From the NCBI GenBank assembly GCA_051532055.1, contig JAOPTX010000007.1, forward strand, positions 128,001 through 192,000: DNA of 64,000 bases, read 5' to 3'. Positions 1,446-19,921 of the stretch are shown here, in pieces (position 1 is the first letter of the stretch; every line of letters starts with the position of its first letter). The translations under genes were made by a program, and so were the position numbers. Under the pieces are notes generated by a model, which worked only from the letters and a program-made list of their open reading frames with translations, was not told where the DNA came from and searched no databases. This DNA comes from Fibrobacterales bacterium. GTDB lineage: Bacteria; Fibrobacterota; Fibrobacteria; Fibrobacterales; JAOPTW01.

Positions 1446-4400
1446 TTATGCCACAATACTACACCCTGGGCCATCCAGCACACTTTTCCCACCTTCAATT
1501 GAAGTGACAACGATTTGAGTTTCTATACGCGCTTTGAGTGCTGGAACATGAGATATTACCCCAATGAGCTTCCCCTCTTCATGCAACCCTGACAATGCAT
1601 TCAAGGCAACCTCAAGAGAGTCTTCATCAAGTGTGCCAAAACCCTCATCCAAGAAAAGAGAATCAATGCGCACTCGTTTACTCGCCATCTTTGAAAGCCC
1701 TAAGGCAAGAGCTAAGCTTACAATAAAACTCTCTCCTCCAGAGAGGTTTTTTGTGGAGCGTTCAACACACCCTTGATGCGCATCGATAACATTAAGCTCA
1801 AGTGGCTTTTCTGCATCACGAACCAACAAATAACGATCACTCATGTTTTGAAGTTGCGTATTAGCATGACCTATCATAACTTCAAAAGTGAGTCCCTGTG
1901 CAAAATCACGATACTTTTTTCCATCATTTGATCCAATATACAAATGCAATGTATTCCAACGATCACACTCTCTCTTTTGGGCAGCGATTGCATCAGCACC
2001 ACCAGCAAGCAACGCCTTCTGCTCTTCATTCACTGAGAGTTTATTCTGCGCTTCACCCACTTGTTTCTGTAGTGCCGCAATACTTTCTGCTCGCTGCGCC
2101 CTCTCCCCTGTCAACATCTCAAGTGTCATTTCTGAGTTACAACGCGCTTGTTTGTTTTTTATGGAAGCCTCAAGTTCTTCAATAACCGAATGAATACGAA
2201 CTCGTTCATCATTCAAAGCCTTCCCCTGACTTTTTAATTCTCGCAATGTATCAGGCGCAATCCGTATGGATACAAACTGCTCTTCTGAATCAATCCCCAA
2301 CAGCTGTATAGCCTGTATCAGCTGTTCACTCTGTTGAGCTATCAACAACTGATGCTCTGATATTAATTGAGCATTACTATTTAACCGCACCTCAACTTCA
2401 TTACTCAATCTGGCAGCTCCATCCCTTTTTTGACGCGCCTGTTCAAGTAACAAATCTAGTTTCTTCTCTTCTGTTCTTAATAGCCTTTCTTCTTCTAGAC
2501 ACACCTTCGAACCAAAGATCTCTACACGCTGACTTTGAACCTCTTGAAGGCCTACTGTAGCAGCTTCGACAAGCATCTCTTTATCTACGCACCCTTGAGC
2601 CAACTGAGCAGCCTGAGTATCACACCCTTGTAAATCGGCATTGAGTTGTACCAATCTATTTTGCACTTGCCGTTCTTTCACCTGACCCGCATCCCAAAAC
2701 CGCCGACGATCCATCAGTTCTTTCTTGATCTCATCTATACTGGAAACATCAATGTCGCTATACCCATATTTATCTATTAGGACCCCCAACTCACGACACC
2801 CTTTATCTTGAATCCCTACTAATTCATCTACCTCGTCACTCATCCCTTTAAGAGATTCTTGATGATTTTTAATGGTCATCTCAAATTGACTGAGCTCCGA
2901 CTGACACTTTTGTACTTCAAGAATCAAACGTGATTCACTAACCTTCAATTCCTGCTCTTTAGTATTCAACTGCTGTATCACCGTCATCCGCTCTTGAACT
3001 GAAGTAATCATCACTTCAGTTACACTCGGTTCCGGCACATTCCCTAATGCCCATGGGTGCTCTTGAGCACCACACAACGGGCACTCTTTTCCATCTTCAA
3101 GCTTTCTCCGTTCATCCTCAAGATGAACCACTTGCAACTGAAATTGTTTCAGTTCACTTAAATGTTGTAATTCACGCCCATACTCTTCAAGCTCTTTACC
3201 TGCAAGCTGCCGCACCCTCTGCTCTATCACATAGCCGACCTGATCTCCACACTCAGACACCTTATTTTCAGCCCTATTTAAACTCTGATTCAACTGCTCA
3301 TGATACTCAGCCTGCTGCTCTGTATTTCGTTCTTGTGACGCTAATCGTTCTTTTTGTGCCGCAATCTTTTGCGATCCTTCTCTCATTCTATTCATCAGTA
3401 AGTCTATGACTGCTAGTTCAGAGCTTAATACCCCATCATCAGGATGTTCAGCCAAATATATCTGAACTTTCTCAAGCTCCTCAACTTGGAGCCTTCGTTC
3501 CTGCTGAACCTCTTTTTGTCGAACCATTTGCTCAGCCTGCTTCTTCTGATGTTGTTGCAACTCATTGTCACGACTCTTTACAGCCTCCGTGCGTTCATGC
3601 AGTAATCGATCAAGAGCTGTCACCTCCACAATAAGACCTCTCATGTCCTTTGCCTTGGCTACAAACACACTCTGAGCATGTTGAGCCTCAGCGAACGCCA
3701 ATTCACTCTGAGCACCCTGTTCTTTAAGATTCGGCAGATCAAGCTCCAACCGAACTTTTTCTTTTTCATCACGCTGTAACTGTATCCTGCGCGCCTGAAG
3801 AGTACTATAAAGCCCTTCATACTCTTGAGCCTTTTCAGCTCGTTCAATCTTTTTCTCTTGAGATGAAAACCGCTCAGTTTCAACACTATTCTTTTCTCGT
3901 AGCCCCTTTTGCTCTTCAAAATTTTTAAGTAGTTGAGCTACCTCTGTACACCTCTGTATCTCTTCTATAACTTCTTGCTCACGTATTTTTTCTTTATCAG
4001 CTAACTCTTGCGCATTCTTACACTGAGCCTGTAACTCACTCTCTGCTTCAGTACTCAAAATAGAAATGTGTTTTGTATTCGACTCAAGATCTTCAAGGGA
4101 AGACCGCTCTACAGACCGTCGACGATGCACCTCTTTTGAAATATCCGAATAAAGGTCTGTACCAGTAATTTGCTCTAATATAACCGAGCGATCATCAGAG
4201 GTCGATTTTAAAAATGCAGCAAAATCACCTTGAGCCAACAATATAGAACGAGTAAATCGTTTAAAATCAAGTCCCGTACATTGCTCAATATACGCCGCAA
4301 CATTTTTTTTCTTGTCTTCTAAAATCGTGCCTTCACCATCAGAAACAGTATGAGTATAATCCTGAAGCTTACCTGCAGCATTCCCCCTTGAGCGACGCTG

Positions 4401-4694
4401 TTTCCATGACGCCCTATACAAACCCTCTTGTGTTTCAAAAAGAACCTCTGCACCACATTCTGCTGTATGCCGAGAAAGAATTTCATTTCCACCCGTTTTA
4501 TTAACCGTTTCAAGACGAGGTGTACGTCCATAGAGTGCCAAAGATAAGGCATCTAAAATAGTTGATTTACCAGCCCCTGTCGGCCCTGTTATTGCAAATA
4601 TTCCATGCACCAAAAATTCAGGATCTTGAAAGTCAATAACCCAATCACCATAAAGAGAATTTAAATTTTTAAAACGCAGTTCATGAATCTTCAT
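1446..4694 (-). CDS. sbcC: SbcC/Rad50-like SMC ATPase (exonuclease subunit C)
   Basis: Walker A GPTGAGKS, long coiled coil with CPLC zinc hook, LSGGE signature, LFLDEGFGTLD Walker B, ISH motif; adjacent to sbcD. Confidence 0.97.
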   Translation of the reverse strand: MKIHELRFKNLNSLYGDWVIDFQDPEFLVHGIFAITGPTGAGKSTILDALSLALYGRTPRLETVNKTGGNEILSRHTAECGAEVLFETQEGLYRASWKQRRSRGNAAGKLQDYTHTVSDGEGTILEDKKKNVAAYIEQCTGLDFKRFTRSILLAQGDFAAFLKSTSDDRSVILEQITGTDLYSDISKEVHRRRSVERSSLEDLESNTKHISILSTEAESELQAQCKNAQELADKEKIREQEVIEEIQRCTEVAQLLKNFEEQKGLREKNSVETERFSSQEKKIERAEKAQEYEGLYSTLQARRIQLQRDEKEKVRLELDLPNLKEQGAQSELAFAEAQHAQSVFVAKAKDMRGLIVEVTALDRLLHERTEAVKSRDNELQQHQKKQAEQMVRQKEVQQERRLQVEELEKVQIYLAEHPDDGVLSSELAVIDLLMNRMREGSQKIAAQKERLASQERNTEQQAEYHEQLNQSLNRAENKVSECGDQVGYVIEQRVRQLAGKELEEYGRELQHLSELKQFQLQVVHLEDERRKLEDGKECPLCGAQEHPWALGNVPEPSVTEVMITSVQERMTVIQQLNTKEQELKVSESRLILEVQKCQSELSQFEMTIKNHQESLKGMSDEVDELVGIQDKGCRELGVLIDKYGYSDIDVSSIDEIKKELMDRRRFWDAGQVKERQVQNRLVQLNADLQGCDTQAAQLAQGCVDKEMLVEAATVGLQEVQSQRVEIFGSKVCLEEERLLRTEEKKLDLLLEQARQKRDGAARLSNEVEVRLNSNAQLISEHQLLIAQQSEQLIQAIQLLGIDSEEQFVSIRIAPDTLRELKSQGKALNDERVRIHSVIEELEASIKNKQARCNSEMTLEMLTGERAQRAESIAALQKQVGEAQNKLSVNEEQKALLAGGADAIAAQKRECDRWNTLHLYIGSNDGKKYRDFAQGLTFEVMIGHANTQLQNMSDRYLLVRDAEKPLELNVIDAHQGCVERSTKNLSGGESFIVSLALALGLSKMASKRVRIDSLFLDEGFGTLDEDSLEVALNALSGLHEEGKLIGVISHVPALKARIETQIVVTSIEGGKSVLDGPGCSIVA

Positions 4695-4697
4695 ATA

Positions 4698-5927
4698 CTA
4701 CTCCGCCCGTATATCTGTTTCGTGAAGTGTTGATACTGCTTCGATATAAGTCGCCAACAATGCCTCATGTTCACTCTGATCCACTTCTTTAATTTCGAGC
4801 AATTTTTTAAACACCTCAATATCACTGAGCTCATCGAGTACTTCTTGTGCAGCAGTTCTGTGAAGCACCGACTCAACTACCCGTCTATTCTTTACTAAGA
4901 GCACTGCTAAACTGCTTTCTACAACACACTCTACTACTTGTTCATTTAAATCTGGCACCGTTGCAGCCCCCGTATACTCAACCTCAATCCACGCAGCACT
5001 CTCTGCCGCTTTTAATCTATCAATAGCTAACTCTATCTCTTCAAGGGTACCCGATATTCGCTCTAGCGCCTGAAACACAGGTACCGATTGTTCTTCAATA
5101 GTTGGACGGCTTCCTTCAAATGATACAACAATAATTTGCTTATCCTGATACGCTTCACCAAACCCCATGGCAAGTGGAGAACCACAATAGCGAAAATGCT
5201 CAACTCCACCTACTTTTTGTGGTACATGTAAATGCCCGAGAGCCAAATAATCGATACAGTCTGGAAATGCCTCCGCACCAATATGTCCTAAATTGCCCAC
5301 ATAGAGATCGCGCACACCATCACCATCAACAGTAGAGCCACCTGCAGCAAAAAGATGCCCCATCCCTATCAGTGGTACCGCCTTTGAATATTGACTCATG
5401 CGTTTCATTGCAACATCGCACACTTCAGCATAATGTCGCTTGACCCCCTCGACCAATTTTCGTTGTTTGTCATCTACCGACTCACCCGCTTCAACCTTTC
5501 GTATATCACGATCACGCAAATAAGGTACAGCACACACTACAGCTTCTACAGTGCCATTCTCAGAATATAATTCAATAATTTCATCTTCTCTATTCTCGGT
5601 CACCGATCCAATAATATGGACATCAAGTAGATAAAGAAGCTCTTTGGGCGCATTAAGAAGTGAAGCCGAATCATGATTCCCTCCAATAATTACCACATGA
5701 CGACATGGAGTCTTCGAGACCTCAACTAAAAAAGTGTAATAAAGCTTTAGAGCACGATTACTCGGCGCAATTGTATCAAACACATCACCTGCAATTAAAA
5801 GAGCATCAATTTCCTGTACAACAATTTGCTGTACAACCCAAGTCAAAAATGCCTGATATTCGTCATAGCGTTTTTTTCTATGGAGTGAATGACCTATATG
5901 CCAATCTGATGTATGGAGAACTCTCAT
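4698..5927 (-). CDS. sbcD: SbcD/Mre11-like nuclease subunit
   Basis: Metallophosphoesterase motifs LHTSDWHIG, IAGDVFD, GNHDS, ALGHLH, YCGSP. Confidence 0.97.
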   Translation of the reverse strand: MRVLHTSDWHIGHSLHRKKRYDEYQAFLTWVVQQIVVQEIDALLIAGDVFDTIAPSNRALKLYYTFLVEVSKTPCRHVVIIGGNHDSASLLNAPKELLYLLDVHIIGSVTENREDEIIELYSENGTVEAVVCAVPYLRDRDIRKVEAGESVDDKQRKLVEGVKRHYAEVCDVAMKRMSQYSKAVPLIGMGHLFAAGGSTVDGDGVRDLYVGNLGHIGAEAFPDCIDYLALGHLHVPQKVGGVEHFRYCGSPLAMGFGEAYQDKQIIVVSFEGSRPTIEEQSVPVFQALERISGTLEEIELAIDRLKAAESAAWIEVEYTGAATVPDLNEQVVECVVESSLAVLLVKNRRVVESVLHRTAAQEVLDELSDIEVFKKLLEIKEVDQSEHEALLATYIEAVSTLHETDIRAE

Positions 5928-10724: not shown

Positions 10725-10759
10725 AAAAAAATGCCTCGGACTACTCCGAGGCATTTTTT
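10725..10759. terminator. Bidirectional intrinsic terminator between the convergent helicase and S8 protease genes
   Basis: AAAAAAATGCCTCGGA-ctac-TCCGAGGCATTTTTT; the protease stop codon lies in the loop. Confidence 0.85.
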
Positions 10760-12417
10760 ATTTCTGCCTTAAGCCTCCAACCCTTCCCCTGAACCTCTCC
10801 ATTGGTAACAAACCACAGTAAGGTGTAGTTACTCCAAGAGTTCAACTCTGGAGGAGTCTTAGGTCCACTAAACCGAGCAATCAAATCTCCATTGGTTTTT
10901 TCTCCATTAAAAAAATAGAGCCCATCTGTTTTCGATTCGGTATCAAATTCTAAGAAGGTAAATTTAAATATTTTCCCTGGGGGAGCAATAAATTGCCATC
11001 TACAATCACTCTGCGCATTATAGGAATGCTCATTACTCCCATCTGTAATAATGGTATCAGTCATAATAGTCACAGTATTGCTACAATACAAAGCGCTCGA
11101 ATCAATAGTAGTCGTTGAATATTGAAGCGTAAAGTAATCACTCTTACTTGTTGTCGAAAGGTATCTAATATCAAATTGGTTCCCATGTATCACTAATGGC
11201 TTATCCCATTCATACAACGAAACAGAAAGCTCTTCAATTGGCTTTTTATTCTGATAACTATTAATAGTGAAGCGTATATCAGGTGATCCACTCTCTACCA
11301 TTTGTGGGTAGAGGACAATCCCCGGTACAACCCCCGGAATATCAATAGACCACTCAATCTCGGGCTGATACCCAGGGTTTTTGTGTAACACTCCTTTGCT
11401 ACTTACAAGAGAATATTTTTTATGAGGCTTAGCAACCATTATACCACACTCAACTGCATCTACAGGACTCACCACACCGGTGCCCAACTTCCCAATCAGA
11501 CTTTTATTTTGACTGTCCACACTTTGTGCACTATTTATTAAACAATTATGCTGCTCCATTCTCGTAAAAGTTGGGTGTTTCAATTTAATAAGTGCAGCCA
11601 CGGCAGCAATATATGCAGCAGCCATAGATGTTCCAGAGCGAGAGAGTACCGACGTTGTATCACTACTCCCCGCAGAAAAAATAGAATCGCCTGGTGCCGC
11701 AATATCAACATACGCACCATATGATGCATCCTTTAACTTCTTCCTTTTTTCATCTACAGCAGTCACTGCAACAACACCAGGATAGACTGCAGGATAATAT
11801 TGTTGCTCATCTGAAAAATTTGCTACTGACGCAACGAGGGTTACACCTTGCTGCTGCGCATAAAGCAGTACCTCTTTCTCTGCTTGAGTAGCTTTTGCAA
11901 CACTCCAAGCACAAAGGATAATATCAGCACCTGTTTTTACCGCATATTTTATTCCCTTGAAGCCATGCTTAATGTGAGTCTTGTCTGCATTATCCGAAAG
12001 TGCTTTCACAGGAAGAATTTTGACAACACTTTTACTGGTTTTCAACAATGCTTTATCCAAAACTTGACCTATTACACCAGCTACATGAGTCCCATGGTAC
12101 AACTGCGCTCTCTTTTGCGATGAAGGCTTTACATTATCATCCCAATCAGAAACATCCCAGCCCCAAAGGTCATCTACCGCCCCATTGCCATCATCATCTT
12201 TTCTATTGAATGGAACTTCATTCGTATTTTTCCAGATATACTCTTTTAACAAAGTATGGTTTACATTAAAGCCGTCATCTACAATTGCAATGACAATAGT
12301 ATCACTTTGTGTAACAGGAATATTGAGAGTTGGTATCTGAGCCAACCAATAAGGAATTACTTCAGCAGCCCCAATGTTGGCGCTCCAAAATAGGAATATA
12401 AAGGAAAAATATTTCAT
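10741..12417 (-). CDS. Secreted S8 (subtilisin-like) serine protease with C-terminal CUB domain
   Basis: Signal peptide; catalytic triad IAIVDDG / HGTHVAG / SGTSMAA; DDDGNGAVDD insert; CUB pattern C...Y.AQSDCRW.F.AP.G..F.F.F.EFDTE...D.L..F.G......RFSG...P.......L.F.T.....KGW. Confidence 0.9.
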   Translation of the reverse strand: MKYFSFIFLFWSANIGAAEVIPYWLAQIPTLNIPVTQSDTIVIAIVDDGFNVNHTLLKEYIWKNTNEVPFNRKDDDGNGAVDDLWGWDVSDWDDNVKPSSQKRAQLYHGTHVAGVIGQVLDKALLKTSKSVVKILPVKALSDNADKTHIKHGFKGIKYAVKTGADIILCAWSVAKATQAEKEVLLYAQQQGVTLVASVANFSDEQQYYPAVYPGVVAVTAVDEKRKKLKDASYGAYVDIAAPGDSIFSAGSSDTTSVLSRSGTSMAAAYIAAVAALIKLKHPTFTRMEQHNCLINSAQSVDSQNKSLIGKLGTGVVSPVDAVECGIMVAKPHKKYSLVSSKGVLHKNPGYQPEIEWSIDIPGVVPGIVLYPQMVESGSPDIRFTINSYQNKKPIEELSVSLYEWDKPLVIHGNQFDIRYLSTTSKSDYFTLQYSTTTIDSSALYCSNTVTIMTDTIITDGSNEHSYNAQSDCRWQFIAPPGKIFKFTFLEFDTESKTDGLYFFNGEKTNGDLIARFSGPKTPPELNSWSNYTLLWFVTNGEVQGKGWRLKAEIKNASE

Positions 12418-12428
12418 ATGACTAAATT

Positions 12429-12460
12429 AAAAAAGATCCTGTATTTCTACAGGATCTTTT
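12429..12460 (-). terminator. Intrinsic terminator/attenuator between the collagen-like gene and the protease gene
   Basis: Perfect 13-bp stem AAAAGATCCTGTA-tttc-TACAGGATCTTTT with a U-tract on the minus strand. Confidence 0.8.
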
Positions 12461-12480
12461 CAGGTTTACATTGAATTCTA

Positions 12481-13854
12481 CTATTGAGTAATCAAATTAA
12501 TATTTTCACTACCACCTTTAGCACCTAACTGCCTTCGTGTCAAGCCAGGACCACTACCAGGGTGCACCGCTACACGACCTCTAAGATCAGGAAGTGCAAA
12601 TACCGTTCTACCATCACCACCGTAGGTAGTTCCAAGAAGGGAAAATACGGCGCTATATTGAGAAATTGCCATCAATTGGCCATCACACAATGCCCAACCA
12701 CGTGGTGCAAAGTTCCCTGCAAACATTATTATTTCTGCAAGAAATGGGTCAGAGCTATTTCGAGATGGAAATGTTCCTTGTAACGCAATTATATAGTTTA
12801 CCCCAAGCCATGGTTGCATATTGTCATATGTCGATTGATAGTTTGTAGGTTTTTTAGCAATCCAGTTATCACTCTCCCAGGTAAGAACCTCACCATCTTC
12901 ACTCCCATCAACAACTGTTGTGCCACCTGTACCTGCAGGACCAATATCTCCCTGTGGACCTTGAGGTCCAGCGATTCCGCGCTCGCCTTGGTCACCTTTT
13001 GCACCAGGAAGACCATCAACACCAGCAACGCCACGGTCACCTTTTGCACCAGGAAGGCCATCTACACCACCAACACCACGGTCACCTTTTGCACCAGGAA
13101 GGCCATCAACACCAGCAACTCCACGGTCGCCTTTTGCACCAGGAAGGCCATCAACACCAGCAACTCCACGGTCACCCTTTACACCAGGAAGACCATCAAC
13201 ACCGTCAATTCCAGGGTTACCCTGATCACCTTTGTCACCAGCAGCTCCTGATTGTCCAACAGAGAAAGGCTTAAACACATCATCATCATAAATATATGAT
13301 ATAGCATCAATTGTATGATAAAATGCTTCACCACTATTTGCTATGGCAGGAAAGGCATTAAGATCACCAAGCCAATGAACCACTGATCCTTCCTCTTTAA
13401 AAACTTTCATCTCAAAAAGTGACGAACCCCATTGAGTTGCACGAGTGACACAAACAATACGAATATACTGAGCCAAACCAAACTGCTGTACTATTTCATC
13501 AGTACCCCCATTTGAGTTTGTTGTAGAATAAACCGCACTTCCCCAATTGCTCCCATCGTTCGAAAGATAAATTTCATAGCCTTGGGCAAAGGCAGATTCC
13601 CAATTTAGCTCAATCTTATCAATAGCATACGATTGCTGGAGGTCAACAGTTAACCACTCCCCATCAAGGAATTGTGAAGACCATCGTGTATTGTCAATCC
13701 CATCAAATGCCTTGCTTGCTGATAGGGCCCCTGATTCAATACTTGAAGCTGTTGCCGGCTTATTCAATGAAACAAGTGTATAGTTTTGTGCAAATGAAAG
13801 CGAAGCAGCAATAACCACCCCAACTCCCATACGTTTTATATGTGTAAATAACAT
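12481..13854 (-). CDS. Secreted F5/8 type C (discoidin) - collagen triple helix - phage tail-collar (Mdp-like) protein
   Basis: Signal peptide (SLSFA|Q); F5/8C motifs ATASS..AFDG..TRWSS..EWLTVDL..WE; 37 Gly-X-Y triplets; collar motifs FAGNFAPRGWALCDGQ...LLGTTYGGDG...LPDLRGR. Confidence 0.9.
   Translation of the reverse strand: MLFTHIKRMGVGVVIAASLSFAQNYTLVSLNKPATASSIESGALSASKAFDGIDNTRWSSQFLDGEWLTVDLQQSYAIDKIELNWESAFAQGYEIYLSNDGSNWGSAVYSTTNSNGGTDEIVQQFGLAQYIRIVCVTRATQWGSSLFEMKVFKEEGSVVHWLGDLNAFPAIANSGEAFYHTIDAISYIYDDDVFKPFSVGQSGAAGDKGDQGNPGIDGVDGLPGVKGDRGVAGVDGLPGAKGDRGVAGVDGLPGAKGDRGVGGVDGLPGAKGDRGVAGVDGLPGAKGDQGERGIAGPQGPQGDIGPAGTGGTTVVDGSEDGEVLTWESDNWIAKKPTNYQSTYDNMQPWLGVNYIIALQGTFPSRNSSDPFLAEIIMFAGNFAPRGWALCDGQLMAISQYSAVFSLLGTTYGGDGRTVFALPDLRGRVAVHPGSGPGLTRRQLGAKGGSENINLITQ
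12990..13203. repeat. Coding tandem repeat, 45-bp unit, about 4.7 copies (GDRGVAGVDGLPGAK)
   Basis: Units start at 12991, 13036, 13081, 13126 and 13171 (gtcaccttttgcaccaggaag...), with mostly synonymous differences. Confidence 0.95.
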
Positions 13855-14143
13855 TGTATCCTCCCAATGAACTCATGAGCATCTCTCAAGATTCTCTATT
13901 AAGCTGTTACTGTGATTCACAAAGATAACCCTGTTAAAAATTCACATTTGTAAACTATATGTTAACAAACGCTACCAAGAAGTATTCAATTATAACGTTA
14001 TATGAAATCTAACGAAGACCTATACTATTTCACTCTTAATTACCCAAAAAGAGCGATGAGCACCCCACCTCGAATCAATTCAACTAACCATTTCAAGTTT
14101 GGTATTTCTGAACGTTTTAACCTCTCTTTAGTATAACTATTAG

Positions 14144-14176
14144 AAAACCGCCTTGGATCACTCCGAGGCAGTTTTT
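14144..14176 (-). terminator. Intrinsic terminator-like hairpin after the 14199-15170 gene
   Basis: Minus strand AAAAACTGCCTCGGA-gtga-TCCAAGGCGGTTTT. Confidence 0.7.
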
Positions 14177-14198: not shown

Positions 14199-15170
14199 TT
14201 ATTGCCCTATACGAATACCAATCTCAAAGCCCGGCCAATGGTGTACATCATCATGATCTTGCGTATATTCATCTGTCCAAGGTGCCGTAAGGGCTCCATT
14301 ACCATGAGTCCACAATCCATTATAAGTAACCCCTCCAAACAATCCGACTTTATTTAAAAGTTGCATACCGATACGAGCTTTAATTTGCCCGAGAGAGTTA
14401 TGACGCCAGTCATTTCTATCCCAGTCATCATCTTTTCGAGTTAATACGGTATGCTTATCCATGATCAAGCTCCCATGCATTTCAACTTCCGTATATACGC
14501 GCCCCATTTCCTTATGATATCCAACACCCATTCCCAATGAGTAGGGGTTCGTTTCACTATCAAAGGTATAGCCAATACTATAAGATGTGAATAGTGTTTT
14601 GCCCGATGCAAATGTCAAGCGATTCATCCCCGATTCGTCAGCGCTATAATCAACATGAAATAGCCCATTATCTGCAATAGTTAACAATGCAAATGAATAA
14701 CCATCAATATGATCAGCTATATTAAGCATACCAATCTGTCCACCCACAATAGTATCTACTACATTTACATTACCAATTTGTATCCCTTCAACATATTGTG
14801 CACTATTAATTGTTCCAAAAATCTGCCCGCCTTCAACTCGTTTAGCATAATTTGCAAAAGCAAAGAGCTGGTATCCTCTAATAGTCCCTCCAACATGGTT
14901 ATACCCCGACGTCAGTTGGAAATCCTCTAAATCGCCTAACGCAATATTTGAAACAAGTGACACCTGTGAACCTGATACATTTTCTGTAGCAACATTACTC
15001 AAAGCAGAAATTTGGGTAGACTGGTTCTTACACTCACTATAAGTATAATACCACGTTTTATCGACGCGCTTTTCGCCACAGGGTGATACTGATTCGGTAT
15101 TTGTTGCAGTTCCAGCTACAGCACATACAGCTGTAATAAGGAGTGTAGTGACTATTGGTAGTATTTTCAT
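14199..15170 (-). CDS. Exported protein with LA_2272-like beta-solenoid repeats and a beta-barrel-like C-terminus
   Basis: Signal peptide; repeats of G.Q(L/I)...N.A..V.G.QIG..N; alternating beta-strand C-terminal region ending GFEIGIRIGQ. Confidence 0.65.
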   Translation of the reverse strand: MKILPIVTTLLITAVCAVAGTATNTESVSPCGEKRVDKTWYYTYSECKNQSTQISALSNVATENVSGSQVSLVSNIALGDLEDFQLTSGYNHVGGTIRGYQLFAFANYAKRVEGGQIFGTINSAQYVEGIQIGNVNVVDTIVGGQIGMLNIADHIDGYSFALLTIADNGLFHVDYSADESGMNRLTFASGKTLFTSYSIGYTFDSETNPYSLGMGVGYHKEMGRVYTEVEMHGSLIMDKHTVLTRKDDDWDRNDWRHNSLGQIKARIGMQLLNKVGLFGGVTYNGLWTHGNGALTAPWTDEYTQDHDDVHHWPGFEIGIRIGQ

Positions 15171-16363: not shown

Positions 16364-19300
16364 ATGCTTCAACATGATAAAACCCTTCAGGGTAATGAAC
16401 TGATGTTAATACATCTGCGTAGTGATGGAAAAATTCACTGGGCTGATGAAAATTTTCTGAGATATATGTCTATTCAAGACATTGACGTTATTGGAGTACA
16501 TAAAGATGTCCTCTATCAGTCTCCCCAGATCAGTATTGCAAATATTATTATTCACACTCCCATTGATATTGATCGCCGCGTAGAAGCTGTTGATGAACAA
16601 GGTGACCTGTTTGAAGTCAAGATTACTTGGAAGAAGAGTGAAGCACACATAGTCATTGAAAATATAGACCGAAAAAAACTCATTAAGAAAGAGACGGTCT
16701 TTGGCAAATTTACCCTTATAGAAAAGATTGGACGAGGTGGCACTGCAGAGGTATGGAAAGCACGTGATGATGACTGGGGCTTAGTCGTTGCTGTTAAAAA
16801 AATGATTGCGGGAACCCATGCCAGCAAAGAGAATATCAAACGGTTTTTAAAAGAAGCCGAGCTAATGAAGCGCCTCAACCACAATAACATTTGTCACATT
16901 CATGAAGTAGGCCAACACGAAGGGGTATACTACATATCAATGGAGTATATTGATGGCATTGATCTCAATGATTTCATTCTTTCAAATACCTTCTTACAGC
17001 TTAAACAGAAATTTAAAATTGTGAAAGATGTACTCTCAGCAGTACAGCACGCTCATGATAACGACATCATTCACCGCGACCTCAAGCCTGCTAATATTAT
17101 GATGCGCAACAATGGTGAGCCGGTGGTTATGGATTTCGGCTTGGCACGAATTATCAATACCGAGCACACTATTACTCTAGATGATCAGGTTGTTGGGACT
17201 GTAGACTGGATGTCTCCTGAACAAGCTCAGGCTTCAAATGACGTCGATGAACGAAGTGATATATTTTCTGTTGGCGCCATCATGTATTATCTGATAACAG
17301 GGCAAAAATGGTTTAACAGTAGTGGCAACATTTTTCGCGATACAAAACTGATCCAGAAAAAAGAATTGGTTCCACCACGGTTACTCCAACCAACCCTCGC
17401 CAAAAGTATTGAAACAATTATTTTAAAAGCAATGGACAAAAGTCCTCGCAGGCGCTATCAATCTGCCATAAACTTTTTGGGAGATATAGTCCGTTTTGAA
17501 AAGAATCAGCGGATTACTGCCCGGAAACCAACAGTCCTTCATCGTTTACATAAAAAATACAAGCACAACCCCGTCTACTTTTGGGCTCTATTTTGTATCG
17601 CTTCCATCCTTATACTTTCATCGGTATTATTGTATGGTCAAAGACTCAAAGAACTCGCTACATGGGACCTCATCTTTTACGAAGATTTTAGTAGCTATGA
17701 CTCCCCAGCTGATGTCAATCAACACTGGATTGGCTATAGTGCTGATAGTTATACCTGGTCTAAAGGAATGATCAAAAGCTTTACCTTCACTGACTCATCA
17801 TTCTGGCACCTCGACTCAGGTGTTTTTACCAGCGACTTATCAAAGAGTAATATTTTCTGTGCAAACCTCACCTATAAAGATCGACTCCCTGGTAATATCC
17901 GCGTAGAGTGGAAGATGAAAGGTTTTGAACACAACCTCAATTATGATGCGTATATCGCTGGTGAAACACGATTTGATGGATACACCTTCCATCTCGGCGG
18001 CTGGGACAATGAGCAGTATTTTGTACTCACCAAAGGCAAAGACGCTCTCATTCTCGATTACTCAATACAAGACACCCCTCTCGAAACCAATCGAGAATAT
18101 GAGTTTGTCATGGAGAAAGAAGATAAACACATACGGCTCTATATGGATGGATCACTTATTTTTGATTATTTTGATTACAATATCTTATCGGGTGAACGTA
18201 ATCAAAGTTTTGGATTTGACAACTGCCTTAAACATACACAACAGGTGTATGATATAAAAGTGTATACCCAAGCTATTGCACAAAAAATATCTCCCATCTC
18301 TATTGGTGACGCTTTTTTTGCTAAAGAGCAGTACCAAAATGCCTATGACCAATACCATCAATTGATGAATGCTTATTCTGGTTCAAACATAGCAAAAGAG
18401 GCCCATTTCAAAAAAGCGCTCTGTCTTGCAAAACTTAAAAGAGACTCTATCGCTTATACCCTCTTTGAGACATTTGAACAAAGGCATCCTAGTCACGAGC
18501 AAGTCCCCTACTCAATTTATGAAAGAGCTCTCATCTTTCAACGAAAAGGTGAACCACAACAAGAAAAACTCCTGTACCAAGAGCTTTCAGTTCGGTTTCC
18601 AGGACACCCCTTATTAAAACCAATATTTTTTAATAAAGGTACCGCTCTCCTAAATGAGTTACATCTACTCAACACAACTAATCACGACTCGATTGTTTCA
18701 ACAATTCTTTCAAAACTAGATCAAGTTAAAATATGGGCACAGCTCTTTGATCTCGACTTTGAAAACAACCCCTTTTCTCAGCCCGTCTTTACACAACTCC
18801 TTAATCTAAAAGAGTATGACATCATCCTTAAACACTTTAACAATCCTCGCTATATACACATATACGACAAATATGCTCAACTCCTTTATAGAATGCAGAC
18901 TTACGACTCTATTAAGAGTGTCGATAATTATACCAAAAAACTTATTGCCTTATCCCACCTCAGACAACGCAACTATAAAGCTCTTAAAAAAAGTATCAGT
19001 ACCTACGCTGGGCACGATGATGTTCTCGCCACACTCTTTGGTATGAATGCCCCTCCTCAACTCTTTACTCACTTCATCGATGAACCACAATTTCAGCCAC
19101 AATATTTCTCCTATTACTACACCAGTGGCCAATCAGCTCACTTAAAAAATTTAGACTCGTTAAGTGACATTCAAACAGCCTATGCACGTACGGCTCTCAC
19201 CGAATTCGATGAAGCCCTTGCACTTCCAGAACACCCAAATGGACTTAAAAAATGGTATCACGCCATGAATACTCGGGTCCCTTTTCCCATCACGGCAACC

Positions 19301-19921
19301 ACTCCACTATTACACTATTCACTCTCTACCGCACAAGACCTTAAATGGGCTACCAATCCACAATTCAGAAACACTCTACCAAGTCTTGATCGACATAATA
19401 AGGCTGATAGTGCTCTCAACTTTGATGATTCTCATTTTATAGACACCCCACAGTATGCTTCACTCCCAAATAGCATAACCATTAGCGCATGGATCAACCC
19501 TTCAACCGTTCCGACCAATAGAACCAGCACAATATTATCTCTCCTTCTCGACAATACAGAAAGTATCACTCTCAACCTTAAAAATATTAAGAGCCACTTT
19601 CATTTTGAGGTTGTAGAGACAAAGGAAGTAGAAACGACCAACTTTAATTCATTTTGCGAATCAACCCTCAGTGCTTGGACTCATCTTACCCTTGTTATTT
19701 CAGAAGAGGATCACCACTATACGTTGTATATAAATGGCATGTTTGATTCATATATTCCAAGAGTACAATCACTCAATAGCTCATCGCTCAGCCGAGTCTA
19801 TATTGGAACCGATGCCCACTCAAAAATCCAGTTTTTCAATGGGTCAATCGATGATGTTTCAATATTTGGGAGTGCGTTAAACCCAAAAGAAGTTCAAGCC
19901 CTCTTTCACTCAGAACAATAA
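16364..19921 (+). CDS. Membrane Hanks-type Ser/Thr kinase with extracytoplasmic lectin-like, TPR-like and LamG-like domains
   Basis: GRGGTAEV, VAVK, HRDLKPAN, DFG, WMSPEQ; TM VYFWALFCIASILILSSVLLY; TPR-like helices; C-terminal TISAWI...WTHL...LYING...IG....FNGSIDDVSIF...L. Confidence 0.9.
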   Translation: MLQHDKTLQGNELMLIHLRSDGKIHWADENFLRYMSIQDIDVIGVHKDVLYQSPQISIANIIIHTPIDIDRRVEAVDEQGDLFEVKITWKKSEAHIVIENIDRKKLIKKETVFGKFTLIEKIGRGGTAEVWKARDDDWGLVVAVKKMIAGTHASKENIKRFLKEAELMKRLNHNNICHIHEVGQHEGVYYISMEYIDGIDLNDFILSNTFLQLKQKFKIVKDVLSAVQHAHDNDIIHRDLKPANIMMRNNGEPVVMDFGLARIINTEHTITLDDQVVGTVDWMSPEQAQASNDVDERSDIFSVGAIMYYLITGQKWFNSSGNIFRDTKLIQKKELVPPRLLQPTLAKSIETIILKAMDKSPRRRYQSAINFLGDIVRFEKNQRITARKPTVLHRLHKKYKHNPVYFWALFCIASILILSSVLLYGQRLKELATWDLIFYEDFSSYDSPADVNQHWIGYSADSYTWSKGMIKSFTFTDSSFWHLDSGVFTSDLSKSNIFCANLTYKDRLPGNIRVEWKMKGFEHNLNYDAYIAGETRFDGYTFHLGGWDNEQYFVLTKGKDALILDYSIQDTPLETNREYEFVMEKEDKHIRLYMDGSLIFDYFDYNILSGERNQSFGFDNCLKHTQQVYDIKVYTQAIAQKISPISIGDAFFAKEQYQNAYDQYHQLMNAYSGSNIAKEAHFKKALCLAKLKRDSIAYTLFETFEQRHPSHEQVPYSIYERALIFQRKGEPQQEKLLYQELSVRFPGHPLLKPIFFNKGTALLNELHLLNTTNHDSIVSTILSKLDQVKIWAQLFDLDFENNPFSQPVFTQLLNLKEYDIILKHFNNPRYIHIYDKYAQLLYRMQTYDSIKSVDNYTKKLIALSHLRQRNYKALKKSISTYAGHDDVLATLFGMNAPPQLFTHFIDEPQFQPQYFSYYYTSGQSAHLKNLDSLSDIQTAYARTALTEFDEALALPEHPNGLKKWYHAMNTRVPFPITATTPLLHYSLSTAQDLKWATNPQFRNTLPSLDRHNKADSALNFDDSHFIDTPQYASLPNSITISAWINPSTVPTNRTSTILSLLLDNTESITLNLKNIKSHFHFEVVETKEVETTNFNSFCESTLSAWTHLTLVISEEDHHYTLYINGMFDSYIPRVQSLNSSSLSRVYIGTDAHSKIQFFNGSIDDVSIFGSALNPKEVQALFHSEQ

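Follow-up and report, generated by a model that had tools for sequence, protein, structure and literature searches.

How does a collagen-like bacterial fibre come to end in a tail-collar domain whose two blocks stand in the reverse of their usual order, and what might such an end do? The question is raised by a gene in a stretch of 64,000 nucleotides (nt) from a Fibrobacterales bacterium (GenBank assembly GCA_051532055.1, contig JAOPTX010000007.1, positions 128,001 to 192,000), referred to here as the window, with coordinates counted from its first letter. The fibre gene lies on the minus strand at 12481..13854 (open reading frame (ORF) listing and Pfam), with its stop codon at 12481-12483, and encodes 457 amino acids (aa). 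Placement by Pfam and by script gives the order signal peptide, F5/8 head, collagen stalk, neck and permuted collar. Alignments confirm, at the level of sequence order, the reading of the collar domain as a circularly permuted PF07484/Mdp domain; that it is permuted, that it belongs to a recurrent subfamily and that it is linked to a protease gene are points that we hold jointly with high confidence. Tail collars rank with the most frequent fibre modules in phages and in bacterial 'Mdp' genes that are still unexplained, and CUB domains are rare in bacteria. What appears to be new here is the strict pairing of a permuted collar with a subtilase that bears a CUB domain, in a two-gene cassette that is small and seemingly mobile.

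Block order of the collar domain

The collar core, aa 374-428 (12571..12735; this and the following parts of the fibre gene are all on the minus strand), matches Pfam Collar (PF07484) over profile positions 2-56 of 57, with 98.5 bits against a gathering cut-off of 24 (E 2.1e-28), and contains the motifs FAGNFAPRGW (aa 378-387, nt 12694-12723) and LPDLRGR (aa 421-427). Ahead of it, at aa 345-366 (12757..12822), stands the C-block or 'return strand' NMQPWLGVNYIIALQGTFPSRN, as located by script placement, blastp and alignment. The module ends with aa 429-457 (12484..12570), whose terminus is GGSENINLITQ (nt 12484-12516). A C-block placed before the core is the reverse of the order in T4 gp12 and gp37 and in single-domain Mdp proteins. 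This swap had been proposed by a first-pass annotation of the DNA, and it holds in alignments against both groups.

Among 75 single-domain Mdp proteins of 165-250 aa, 45 give two blastp high-scoring segment pairs with the fibre in swapped order, the remaining 30 being proteins in which the pattern was missed by the coordinate filters applied. In the swapped pairs the core falls at subject positions ~2-88 and the C-block at the last 21-25 residues (E 1e-7 to 1e-10). The collar also aligns to chain residues 15-84 of the solved T4 gp12 fragment (E 3.5e-4); the stretch 'RPWnISLNYIIK', not significant by itself, occupies residues 183-195 of 198. In the accessible text of the respective papers the gp37 collar is given as residues 811-860 plus 1016-1026 (PMC12724248) and the gp12 collar as residues 342-397 (PMC3004832). 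The canonical order was likewise found in the viral fibres retrieved, for example L241 (671 aa, terminus VMNPYMTMNFIIYTGG), and in-frame permuted units were found at 0 of 78 viral loci.

The fibre resembles the T4 collars (gp12, PDB 1OCY/1PDI, and gp37) in its core motifs, in its modelled trimer and in being made of a core plus one further strand. However, gp12, gp37 and the viral fibres run from shaft to core, then to the HxH needle or head and finally to the return strand, whereas the window fibre places the return strand ahead of the core, has its stalk attached on the needle side, and lacks a head, an HxH and any phage context. The moved strand would sit at the canonical place of the gp12 C-terminal strand in the fold.

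The HxH motif binds metal on the trimer axis in T4 gp12 and gp37. It is absent from the whole 457-aa fibre, which has four histidines in total (aa 5, 160, 180 and 431), as had been pointed out on first reading together with the proposal that collagen stands in the needle's place. The latter is topologically apt, since the strand by which the stalk enters is the one that returns from the needle in phage fibres. The stronger proposal that HxH was swapped for collagen fails: in relatives an HxH or a terminal histidine persists behind the collar, so that collagen is no replacement for it, and HxH is lost in the window fibre.

The collagen-like stalk, aa 200-313 (12916..13257; Pfam Collagen repeats, E 1.6e-17), consists of 38 Gly-X-Y triplets without a break. 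With a rise of ~0.29 nm per residue in the collagen triple helix, these 114 residues would form a triple helix of about 32 nm; the earlier figure of 111 residues and ~30 nm was thus a sound estimate. The stalk DNA at 12990-13221 is made of 5.2 copies of a 45-nt unit (15 aa, GVDGLPGAKGDRGVA-like) with a 90% match, and this repeat could give rise to variation in stalk length. At the far end of the protein, aa 1-23 (MLFTHIKRMGVGVVIAASLSFA/Q; 13786..13854) read, by sequence, as a Sec signal peptide, which would make the fibre an exported protein. The F5/8 type C (discoidin) lectin-type domain follows at aa 34-146 (13417..13755; PF00754, E 3.5e-21, 76.1 bits against a cut-off of 28.2). Between stalk and collar lies the neck, with a beta-hairpin motif EVLTWESDNWIA at aa 322-333 (12856..12891) that represents the 'GDLLTWDGxNWVA' motif of the whole family; its strands are E6-10 and E13-17 in an AlphaFold2 (AF2) monomer of aa 318-457.

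The gene is followed by a terminator-like hairpin with a 14-bp stem and a U-run at 12430..12461 (minus strand), between the fibre and protease genes. Its folding energy of -21.9 kcal/mol (z -4.4) was equalled by 0 of 200 shuffles. A hairpin and U-run after the stop codon indicate that the short C-terminal end of the fibre is the genuine gene end.

Recurrence, relatives and origin of the permuted form

A search with aa 318-457 matched 2092 proteins at E <= 0.001, the highest scores stemming from three tandem units; the label 'microcystin-dependent protein' occurs in the source names of matches. C-block-then-core order was found in 40 of 269 stored proteins, 11 of the 40 having collagen in front; the 40 take in P0001, a gene call of it with a shorter start (P0122, 100% identical) and two tandem proteins that were mis-scored. 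A GDLLTWDGxNWVAxxP-type motif precedes the C-block in all single-unit permuted proteins. In an alignment of 35 rows (A1), identity to the window module is 60-73%, 25 columns are invariant and the neck W14 is nearly so, while the stretch from neck to collar varies in length and sequence. Three kinds of C-terminal end occur in it. In 14 of the 35 rows the stop directly follows GG-x-E-x-H, with a lone terminal histidine; a second kind, to which the window fibre belongs, has a few extra residues; and in 5 rows there is a T-x-T-x-x-Q-M-P-x-H-x-H-T-I-x-Y-Q tail with HxH.

A full-length counterpart in architecture is P0123 (434 aa), with the same four Pfam families and an identity of 57% across 99% of the query. 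At the other extreme, minimal members such as P0160 (198 aa) are made of a signal peptide, neck and collar only. Across the cassette family the neck and collar are thus constant and the N-terminal parts vary, being collagen only, a Bacteroidota domain without Pfam match, or near nothing. Ten permuted loci lie in named genomes of Bacteroidota (Saprospiraceae, Bacteroidales, Pontibacter, Emticicia, Paludibacter, Puia and Flavobacterium), Acidobacteriota (a Vicinamibacterales metagenome-assembled genome, MAG) and Gammaproteobacteria (Vibrio profundi and an Enterobacteriaceae MAG). Pfam confirmed the collar in all nine loci scanned, L021 being left out, and detected collagen in four of the nine (L022, L024, L025 and L077). 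The permuted form is found in at least four phyla besides the window's own, five phyla in all. In the ESM Atlas the best score was 0.88, below the 0.9 lead level, and the matches were all generic collar clusters.

Two arrangements of neighbouring genes at these loci deserve mention. At L062 (a Puia genome), 2582-4955 holds three tandem permuted-collar genes of 252, 251 and 260 aa followed by a subtilase, a triplet which echoes the three-gene habit of canonical collars and hints at heterotrimers. In four Bacteroidota loci (L020, L023, L040 and L077) a protein of 156-168 aa with a type IX secretion system (T9SS) sorting domain (PF18962) is encoded immediately upstream of the permuted-collar gene, and could be a third component of the cassette that is specific to this phylum.

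The canonical cellular proteins, for which we assume the family name MdpB/COG4675, are like the fibre in sequence (core up to 87% identical, in P0165; C-block 70-87%) and in being cellular, not viral. They differ from it in their length of 165-200 aa, N-terminal core, HxH, variable insert and terminal C-block, in usually standing three in tandem, and in lacking an S8-CUB neighbour (0/70). The three-repeat fused Mdp proteins (P0002, P0003, P0019 and P0028; L046, L049, L051 and L098) start, as the fibre does, with C-block then core after the signal peptide, which makes a 'C-block first' phase widespread. Unlike the fibre, each of their chains carries three units, each with HxH, and a PEP-CTERM-type anchor (PF07589), and they have no neck, stalk or S8-CUB neighbour. 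In the four proteins named, ~20-30 residues separate each HxH from the next C-block and the tail is hydrophobic-basic; one such chain may fold as a pseudo-trimeric collar. The order in the fibre is reversed against the canonical forms, but it is standard in a recurrent cellular subfamily and is also the starting phase of these fused proteins.

These comparisons also bear on descent. The first-pass annotation had suggested a repurposed phage fibre base; the cellular Mdp family is the likelier source, given the absence of permuted units at the viral loci and a core 87% identical to that of a canonical cellular Mdp. Among the best 80 genome loci, 60 distribute the C-block and the following core over separate genes in tandem; in-frame fusion occurs in 14 (ten fibres with a single unit and four proteins with several repeats), and 6 show neither arrangement. 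The junction in the fibre, FPSRN-SS-DPFLAEI, is a canonical C-terminal end fused to a canonical N-terminal end minus its Met. The prevalence of tandem canonical genes and the form of the junction fit a classical route of fusion followed by loss of ends. Judged by sequence, head-to-tail fusion of adjacent copies of a cellular Mdp, both ends then being lost, is the most likely origin of the permuted unit. On a tree of 158 collar cores (82 columns, 5 of 153 branches starred), the permuted label changes 27 times on the best tree, of which well-supported branches force only 2.

Other collagen-like proteins and published descriptions were compared with the fibre. Scl1, Scl2 (V domain), BclA (C-terminal domain) and Lcl share with it a Gly-X-Y stalk that has non-collagen domains on either side, whereas the end domain of the window fibre is a permuted tail collar. 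Membership in the Lcl, Scl1 and Scl2 families (NF046116, NF038330 and NF038329) was rejected, the scores being 81.7 against 500, 61.8 against 400 and 54.6 against 325 bits, from the Gly-X-Y region only. The virophage OLV protein OLV19 is described, in the text available, as having collagen-like repeats and a Phage Tail Collar Domain in one protein (PMC3671162); it differs from the window fibre in its viral context, the comparison being one of descriptions and not of sequences. A second paper (PMC3174227) has, in the text available, no bearing on this combination. The terms 'tail fiber' and 'tail collar' were absent, by a term search of the accessible portion, from a review of prokaryotic collagen-like proteins (PMC8968730). 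Neither a permuted collar nor a collar-subtilase pairing was found in the literature covered, which left most subscription journals outside.

The S8-CUB partner gene and the genomic setting

The partner gene (10741..12417, minus strand; Pfam) lies 63 nt downstream of the fibre gene and encodes a protein of 558 aa with a signal peptide, an S8 subtilase domain (aa 39-303; PF00082, E 1.5e-34), a middle region without Pfam match and a C-terminal CUB domain (aa 445-549; PF00431, E 1.1e-13). An S8-CUB homologue was found downstream on the same strand at all ten single-unit permuted loci, compared with 0 of 70 others (tblastn, 3 kb on each side); in L035 the contig end falls within the protease gene, and in L062 the protease follows the three tandem permuted-collar genes. 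Of nine permuted loci with ORFs listed, eight have an ORF of 563-582 aa directly downstream, all eight with S8 and CUB, and six of these complete pairs have their fibre and protease genes 0-11 nt apart or overlapping.

The pairing was also seen from the protease side. A metagenome scan yielded 79 loci, of which three are true S8-CUB; both of those with upstream DNA (2/2) carry a permuted collar. The other 76, produced by overly general search patterns, are generic S8 without CUB, none with a collar. Five carrier genomes have exactly one full-length S8-CUB copy each. Such a copy occurs in 1 of 301 genomes of a Flavobacteriales sample around the Flavobacterium carrier, namely the starting genome itself, and in 1 of 41 genomes around the window genome. 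The cassette is rare and patchy. In a library search, at least 79 of the best 150 S8-CUB representatives (50% identity clusters) are of the 480-700 aa type. The accessible part of a survey lists one Subtilisin-CUB protein, from Bdellovibrio, and calls the role of CUB in prokaryotes unclear (PMC2605481).

S8-CUB orthologues are 30-37% identical at full length. In 9 of 9 aligned orthologues, D47/D48, H108 and S264 (the triad) and the CUB cysteines C445 and C472 are invariant. The closest solved relatives of the CUB domain are cubilin (E 8e-20), PCPE-1 (1e-16) and MASP-1/3 (~1e-7). A HMMER alignment to PCPE-1 CUB2 pairs FDTE...TD...VTN of the window protein with FDLE...YD...VSD; across the aligned family this D never changes, and most orthologues have D at the last position. 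The aligned positions are presumably the Ca2+ site of ligand-binding CUB domains. Several giant ORFs of 1858-4058 aa in the window genome G000 (contigs C31, C49 and C125) and in G001, a genome of the same genus (C26, C91 and C104), combine several F5/8 domains with S8 and have no CUB; their S8 belongs to the cassette-protease subfamily (E 1e-41 to 1e-46, profile positions ~40-330).

Comparison with G001 (91% complete) shows the two genes as a unit. There, a helicase orthologue (97%) and an orthologue (88%) of a 323-aa exported protein lie 81 nt apart, with no gene pair between them. In the window, the 3.35-kb stretch 10767..14119 between those two genes holds the protease and fibre genes only, and by this comparison of sequences the two would have come or gone together. 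A spacer hairpin that is single in G001 (C6, near 134494-134576) flanks the pair on both sides in the window: its left copy, GCCTCGGACTACTCCGAGGC plus a T-run, lies at 10733..10762 and its right copy, GCCTTGGATCACTCCGAGGC, at 14150..14169 (both plus strand), bounding the 3.35-kb pair. The duplicated hairpin could be an insertion footprint or a substrate for deletion. It is noted that the last ~8 codons of the protease gene overlap sequence that aligns with the G001 spacer. The gene for the 323-aa protein (14199-15170, minus strand), being kept beside the helicase in G001, lies outside the cassette; the protein has no Pfam match and a sub-threshold match to LA_2272 surface repeats. Among 40 relatives searched there was no fibre match past aa 340, no collar and no full-length S8-CUB.

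The neighbours in the window encode SbcCD, a sulfate permease, a GNAT protein, a DEAD-box helicase, a methyltransferase, a Ser/Thr kinase and a topoisomerase. A prophage or phage remnant was ruled out, the neighbourhood being ordinary chromosome without phage genes. At 16364-19921 (plus strand), a Ser/Thr protein kinase of 1185 aa has a C-terminal Laminin_G_3 or concanavalin-like lectin domain.

Within the window genome the collar domain occurs once, in the permuted form, as does the full-length S8-CUB gene, and the three tandem canonical paralogues of the Mdp cassette form were not found. In contrast, the N-terminal two-thirds of the fibre (F5/8, the 'WLGxLNxxP...GEAFxH' motif and collagen) are shared with a large family of local paralogues. 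Paralogues on contigs C40, C21, C30, C110 and C123 (L014-L018) number at least five with collagen, four of them with F5/8, and none has a collar. Their C-terminal modules are FISUMP/Fib_succ_major, thrombospondin type-1 (TSP1), Big_2 or an undescribed domain: among the four with F5/8, which also have a signal peptide and the 'WLGxLNxxP...GEAFxH' motif, two have FISUMP (one with Big_2 and Listeria-Bacteroides repeats added), one has TSP1 and one has no known domain, while the fifth combines collagen and FISUMP without F5/8. A TSP1 repeat is unusual in a bacterial protein. A similar 'WLG...AFYW...YDG..W' motif follows the second collagen run of L014 and the collagen run of L015, and may be a collagen-flanking cap. 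On these domain comparisons, head and stalk of the window fibre would be the lineage's own, and the neck-collar module the special part.

A trimer model and the possible role of the cassette

The earlier claim that the collar is trimeric agrees with structure prediction. Three copies of aa 318-457, supplied with alignment A1, gave an intertwined homotrimer with an interface score (ipSAE) of 0.85 (runs 0.84, 0.85 and 0.85), the best of three controls scoring 0.00. In calibration, which was based on two copies and not three, 20 of 30 proteins whose solved structure is a pair of one chain passed the score mark used, as did 1 of 23 whose solved structure is a single chain. Between runs at least 89% of contacts agree, and the predicted local distance difference test (pLDDT) value of the partner is at least 88. 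In the model, aa 348-352 of the C-block (PWLGV; fragment residues 31-35) touch aa 424-431 and 443-447 of the neighbouring chain (fragment 107-114 and 126-130), and the neck hairpin (fragment residues 1-16) takes part in the interface as well. For this region the AF2 monomer has a mean pLDDT of 48.1 and a predicted template modelling score (pTM) of 0.20, and such a poor monomer fits an obligate oligomer. A role of the neck-collar module as a trimerising cap is somewhat more likely than not.

We propose that the chain runs from the collagen stalk through the beta-hairpin neck, return strand and collar core to the stop, and that three chains would interlock through neck and collar, with the return strand modelled against the LRGRVAVH strand of a neighbour. 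The collar trimer would set the register and cap the C-terminal end of the triple helix, and three discoidin domains would be carried at the other end of the stalk. The collar trimer would further be the site where the S8-CUB protease recognises the fibre, for which direct contact between collar and protease we see an even chance. The protease would either dock on the fibre base or cleave the fibre there. Docking is the more likely version but, taken by itself, is tentative; the lack of a conserved cleavage motif together with the extreme conservation of the collar makes us lean, weakly, toward it. Since collagen-free members keep the protease, the target of the CUB domain should be the constant neck-collar and not collagen. 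A MASP-like binding of CUB to collagen lysine was rejected as the general mechanism, because the collagen-free members retain the same protease. The explanation as a whole, comprising the permuted collar, the trimer cap and the recognition by the protease, is given a probability of about 0.55.

Several observations weigh against it. The collagen paralogues without a collar, at least five, indicate that a collar is not generally needed for triple-helix formation in this genome, which counts against the suggestion of the first-pass annotation that the collar is the trimerisation and folding nucleus; the pre-collagen 'WLGxLNxxP...GEAFxH' motif could be the true nucleus. The existence of minimal members with neck and collar means that capping a stalk is not the only role of the module. 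The trimer score may reflect recall of solved collar trimers such as T4 gp12, and would then speak for likeness rather than proof. As for the partnership, no collar-S8 fusion protein occurs among the best 150 S8-CUB representatives, and the strong hairpin between the two genes makes their co-transcription in the window uncertain. Too few supported tree branches leave single and several origins of the permuted form indistinguishable.

The animal systems that couple collagen-stalk proteins with CUB-using proteases offer a comparison. Procollagen with BMP-1 and PCPE-1, and the collectins and C1q with MASP, C1r and C1s, have, as the window pair is modelled to have, a trimeric globular end, a collagen stalk (with a lectin head in the collectins) and a protease that uses CUB. 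Their proteases are, however, of astacin or chymotrypsin type, whereas the window has a subtilase, a collar as the modelled trimeric domain and collagen-free relatives that keep the protease, so the likeness is one of analogy only. That the cassette is a bacterial counterpart of collectin and MASP, or of the procollagen C-propeptide and BMP-1/PCPE, with a permuted collar base on which a CUB subtilase docks or which it processes, and with a two-gene unit that moves between phyla while its outward-facing head is swapped by lineage, is a bolder reading that we consider less likely than not.

The strict linkage of the protease gene to the fibre gene, and the residues D47/D48, H108 and S264 invariant in the nine orthologues, would also suit a removable folding cap: the collar would trimerise the fibre and then be clipped off by the S8-CUB protease, whose CUB grips the trimer, in the manner of a procollagen C-propeptide or a phage-fibre chaperone. 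The CUB domain has its closest resemblance to those of PCPE-1 and cubilin, and the accessible text of PMC6372009 describes PCPE-1 CUB domains as binding the trimeric C-propeptide of procollagen and speeding its removal; the variable C-terminal ends of the fibres point the same way. But the neck-collar stretch varies in length and sequence and has no conserved cleavage motif, the core is 60-87% identical across phyla, a conservation that seems excessive for a cap that is thrown away (although canonical Mdp cores show as much), and the minimal members would keep almost nothing after cleavage. We regard this account as unlikely.

The collar could instead be a ligand-binding end, either an adhesin tip or a surface anchor, and the protease co-regulated without touching the fibre; the minimal members, made of neck and collar, speak for this. 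The 25 columns invariant across phyla suggest a conserved site, and the T9SS sorting-domain protein upstream in four Bacteroidota loci hints at the cell surface. However, the variable and presumably ligand-binding insert, which in phage fibres and Mdp proteins lies between HxH and the return strand (PMC12724248, in the text available), is absent here, and a protease linkage of 10/10 against 0/70 is hard to explain by co-regulation alone; a binding tip is less probable still than a removable cap. A chance remnant of a broken tandem Mdp array, pseudogene or mis-assembly, without function of its own, would give this order by fusion and truncation of the common tandem genes (60/80), but is very improbable given the 457-aa open frame with a terminator hairpin at its end, the same highly conserved architecture and neck motif with a fixed gene partner in many phyla, and the whole architecture shared with P0123 at 57% identity.

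If the proposal of a trimerising collar recognised by its protease is right, a natural circular permutation would have turned a mid-fibre collar into a terminal cap. The fixed protease pairing suggests a fibre-plus-protease device and gives a testable hypothesis for a cassette found in five phyla. As modelled, the neck-collar module would be a small, naturally occurring unit for trimerising collagen-like stalks at their C-terminal end, and by analogy the cassette may be a bacterial parallel to the animal coupling of collagen-stalk proteins with CUB proteases.

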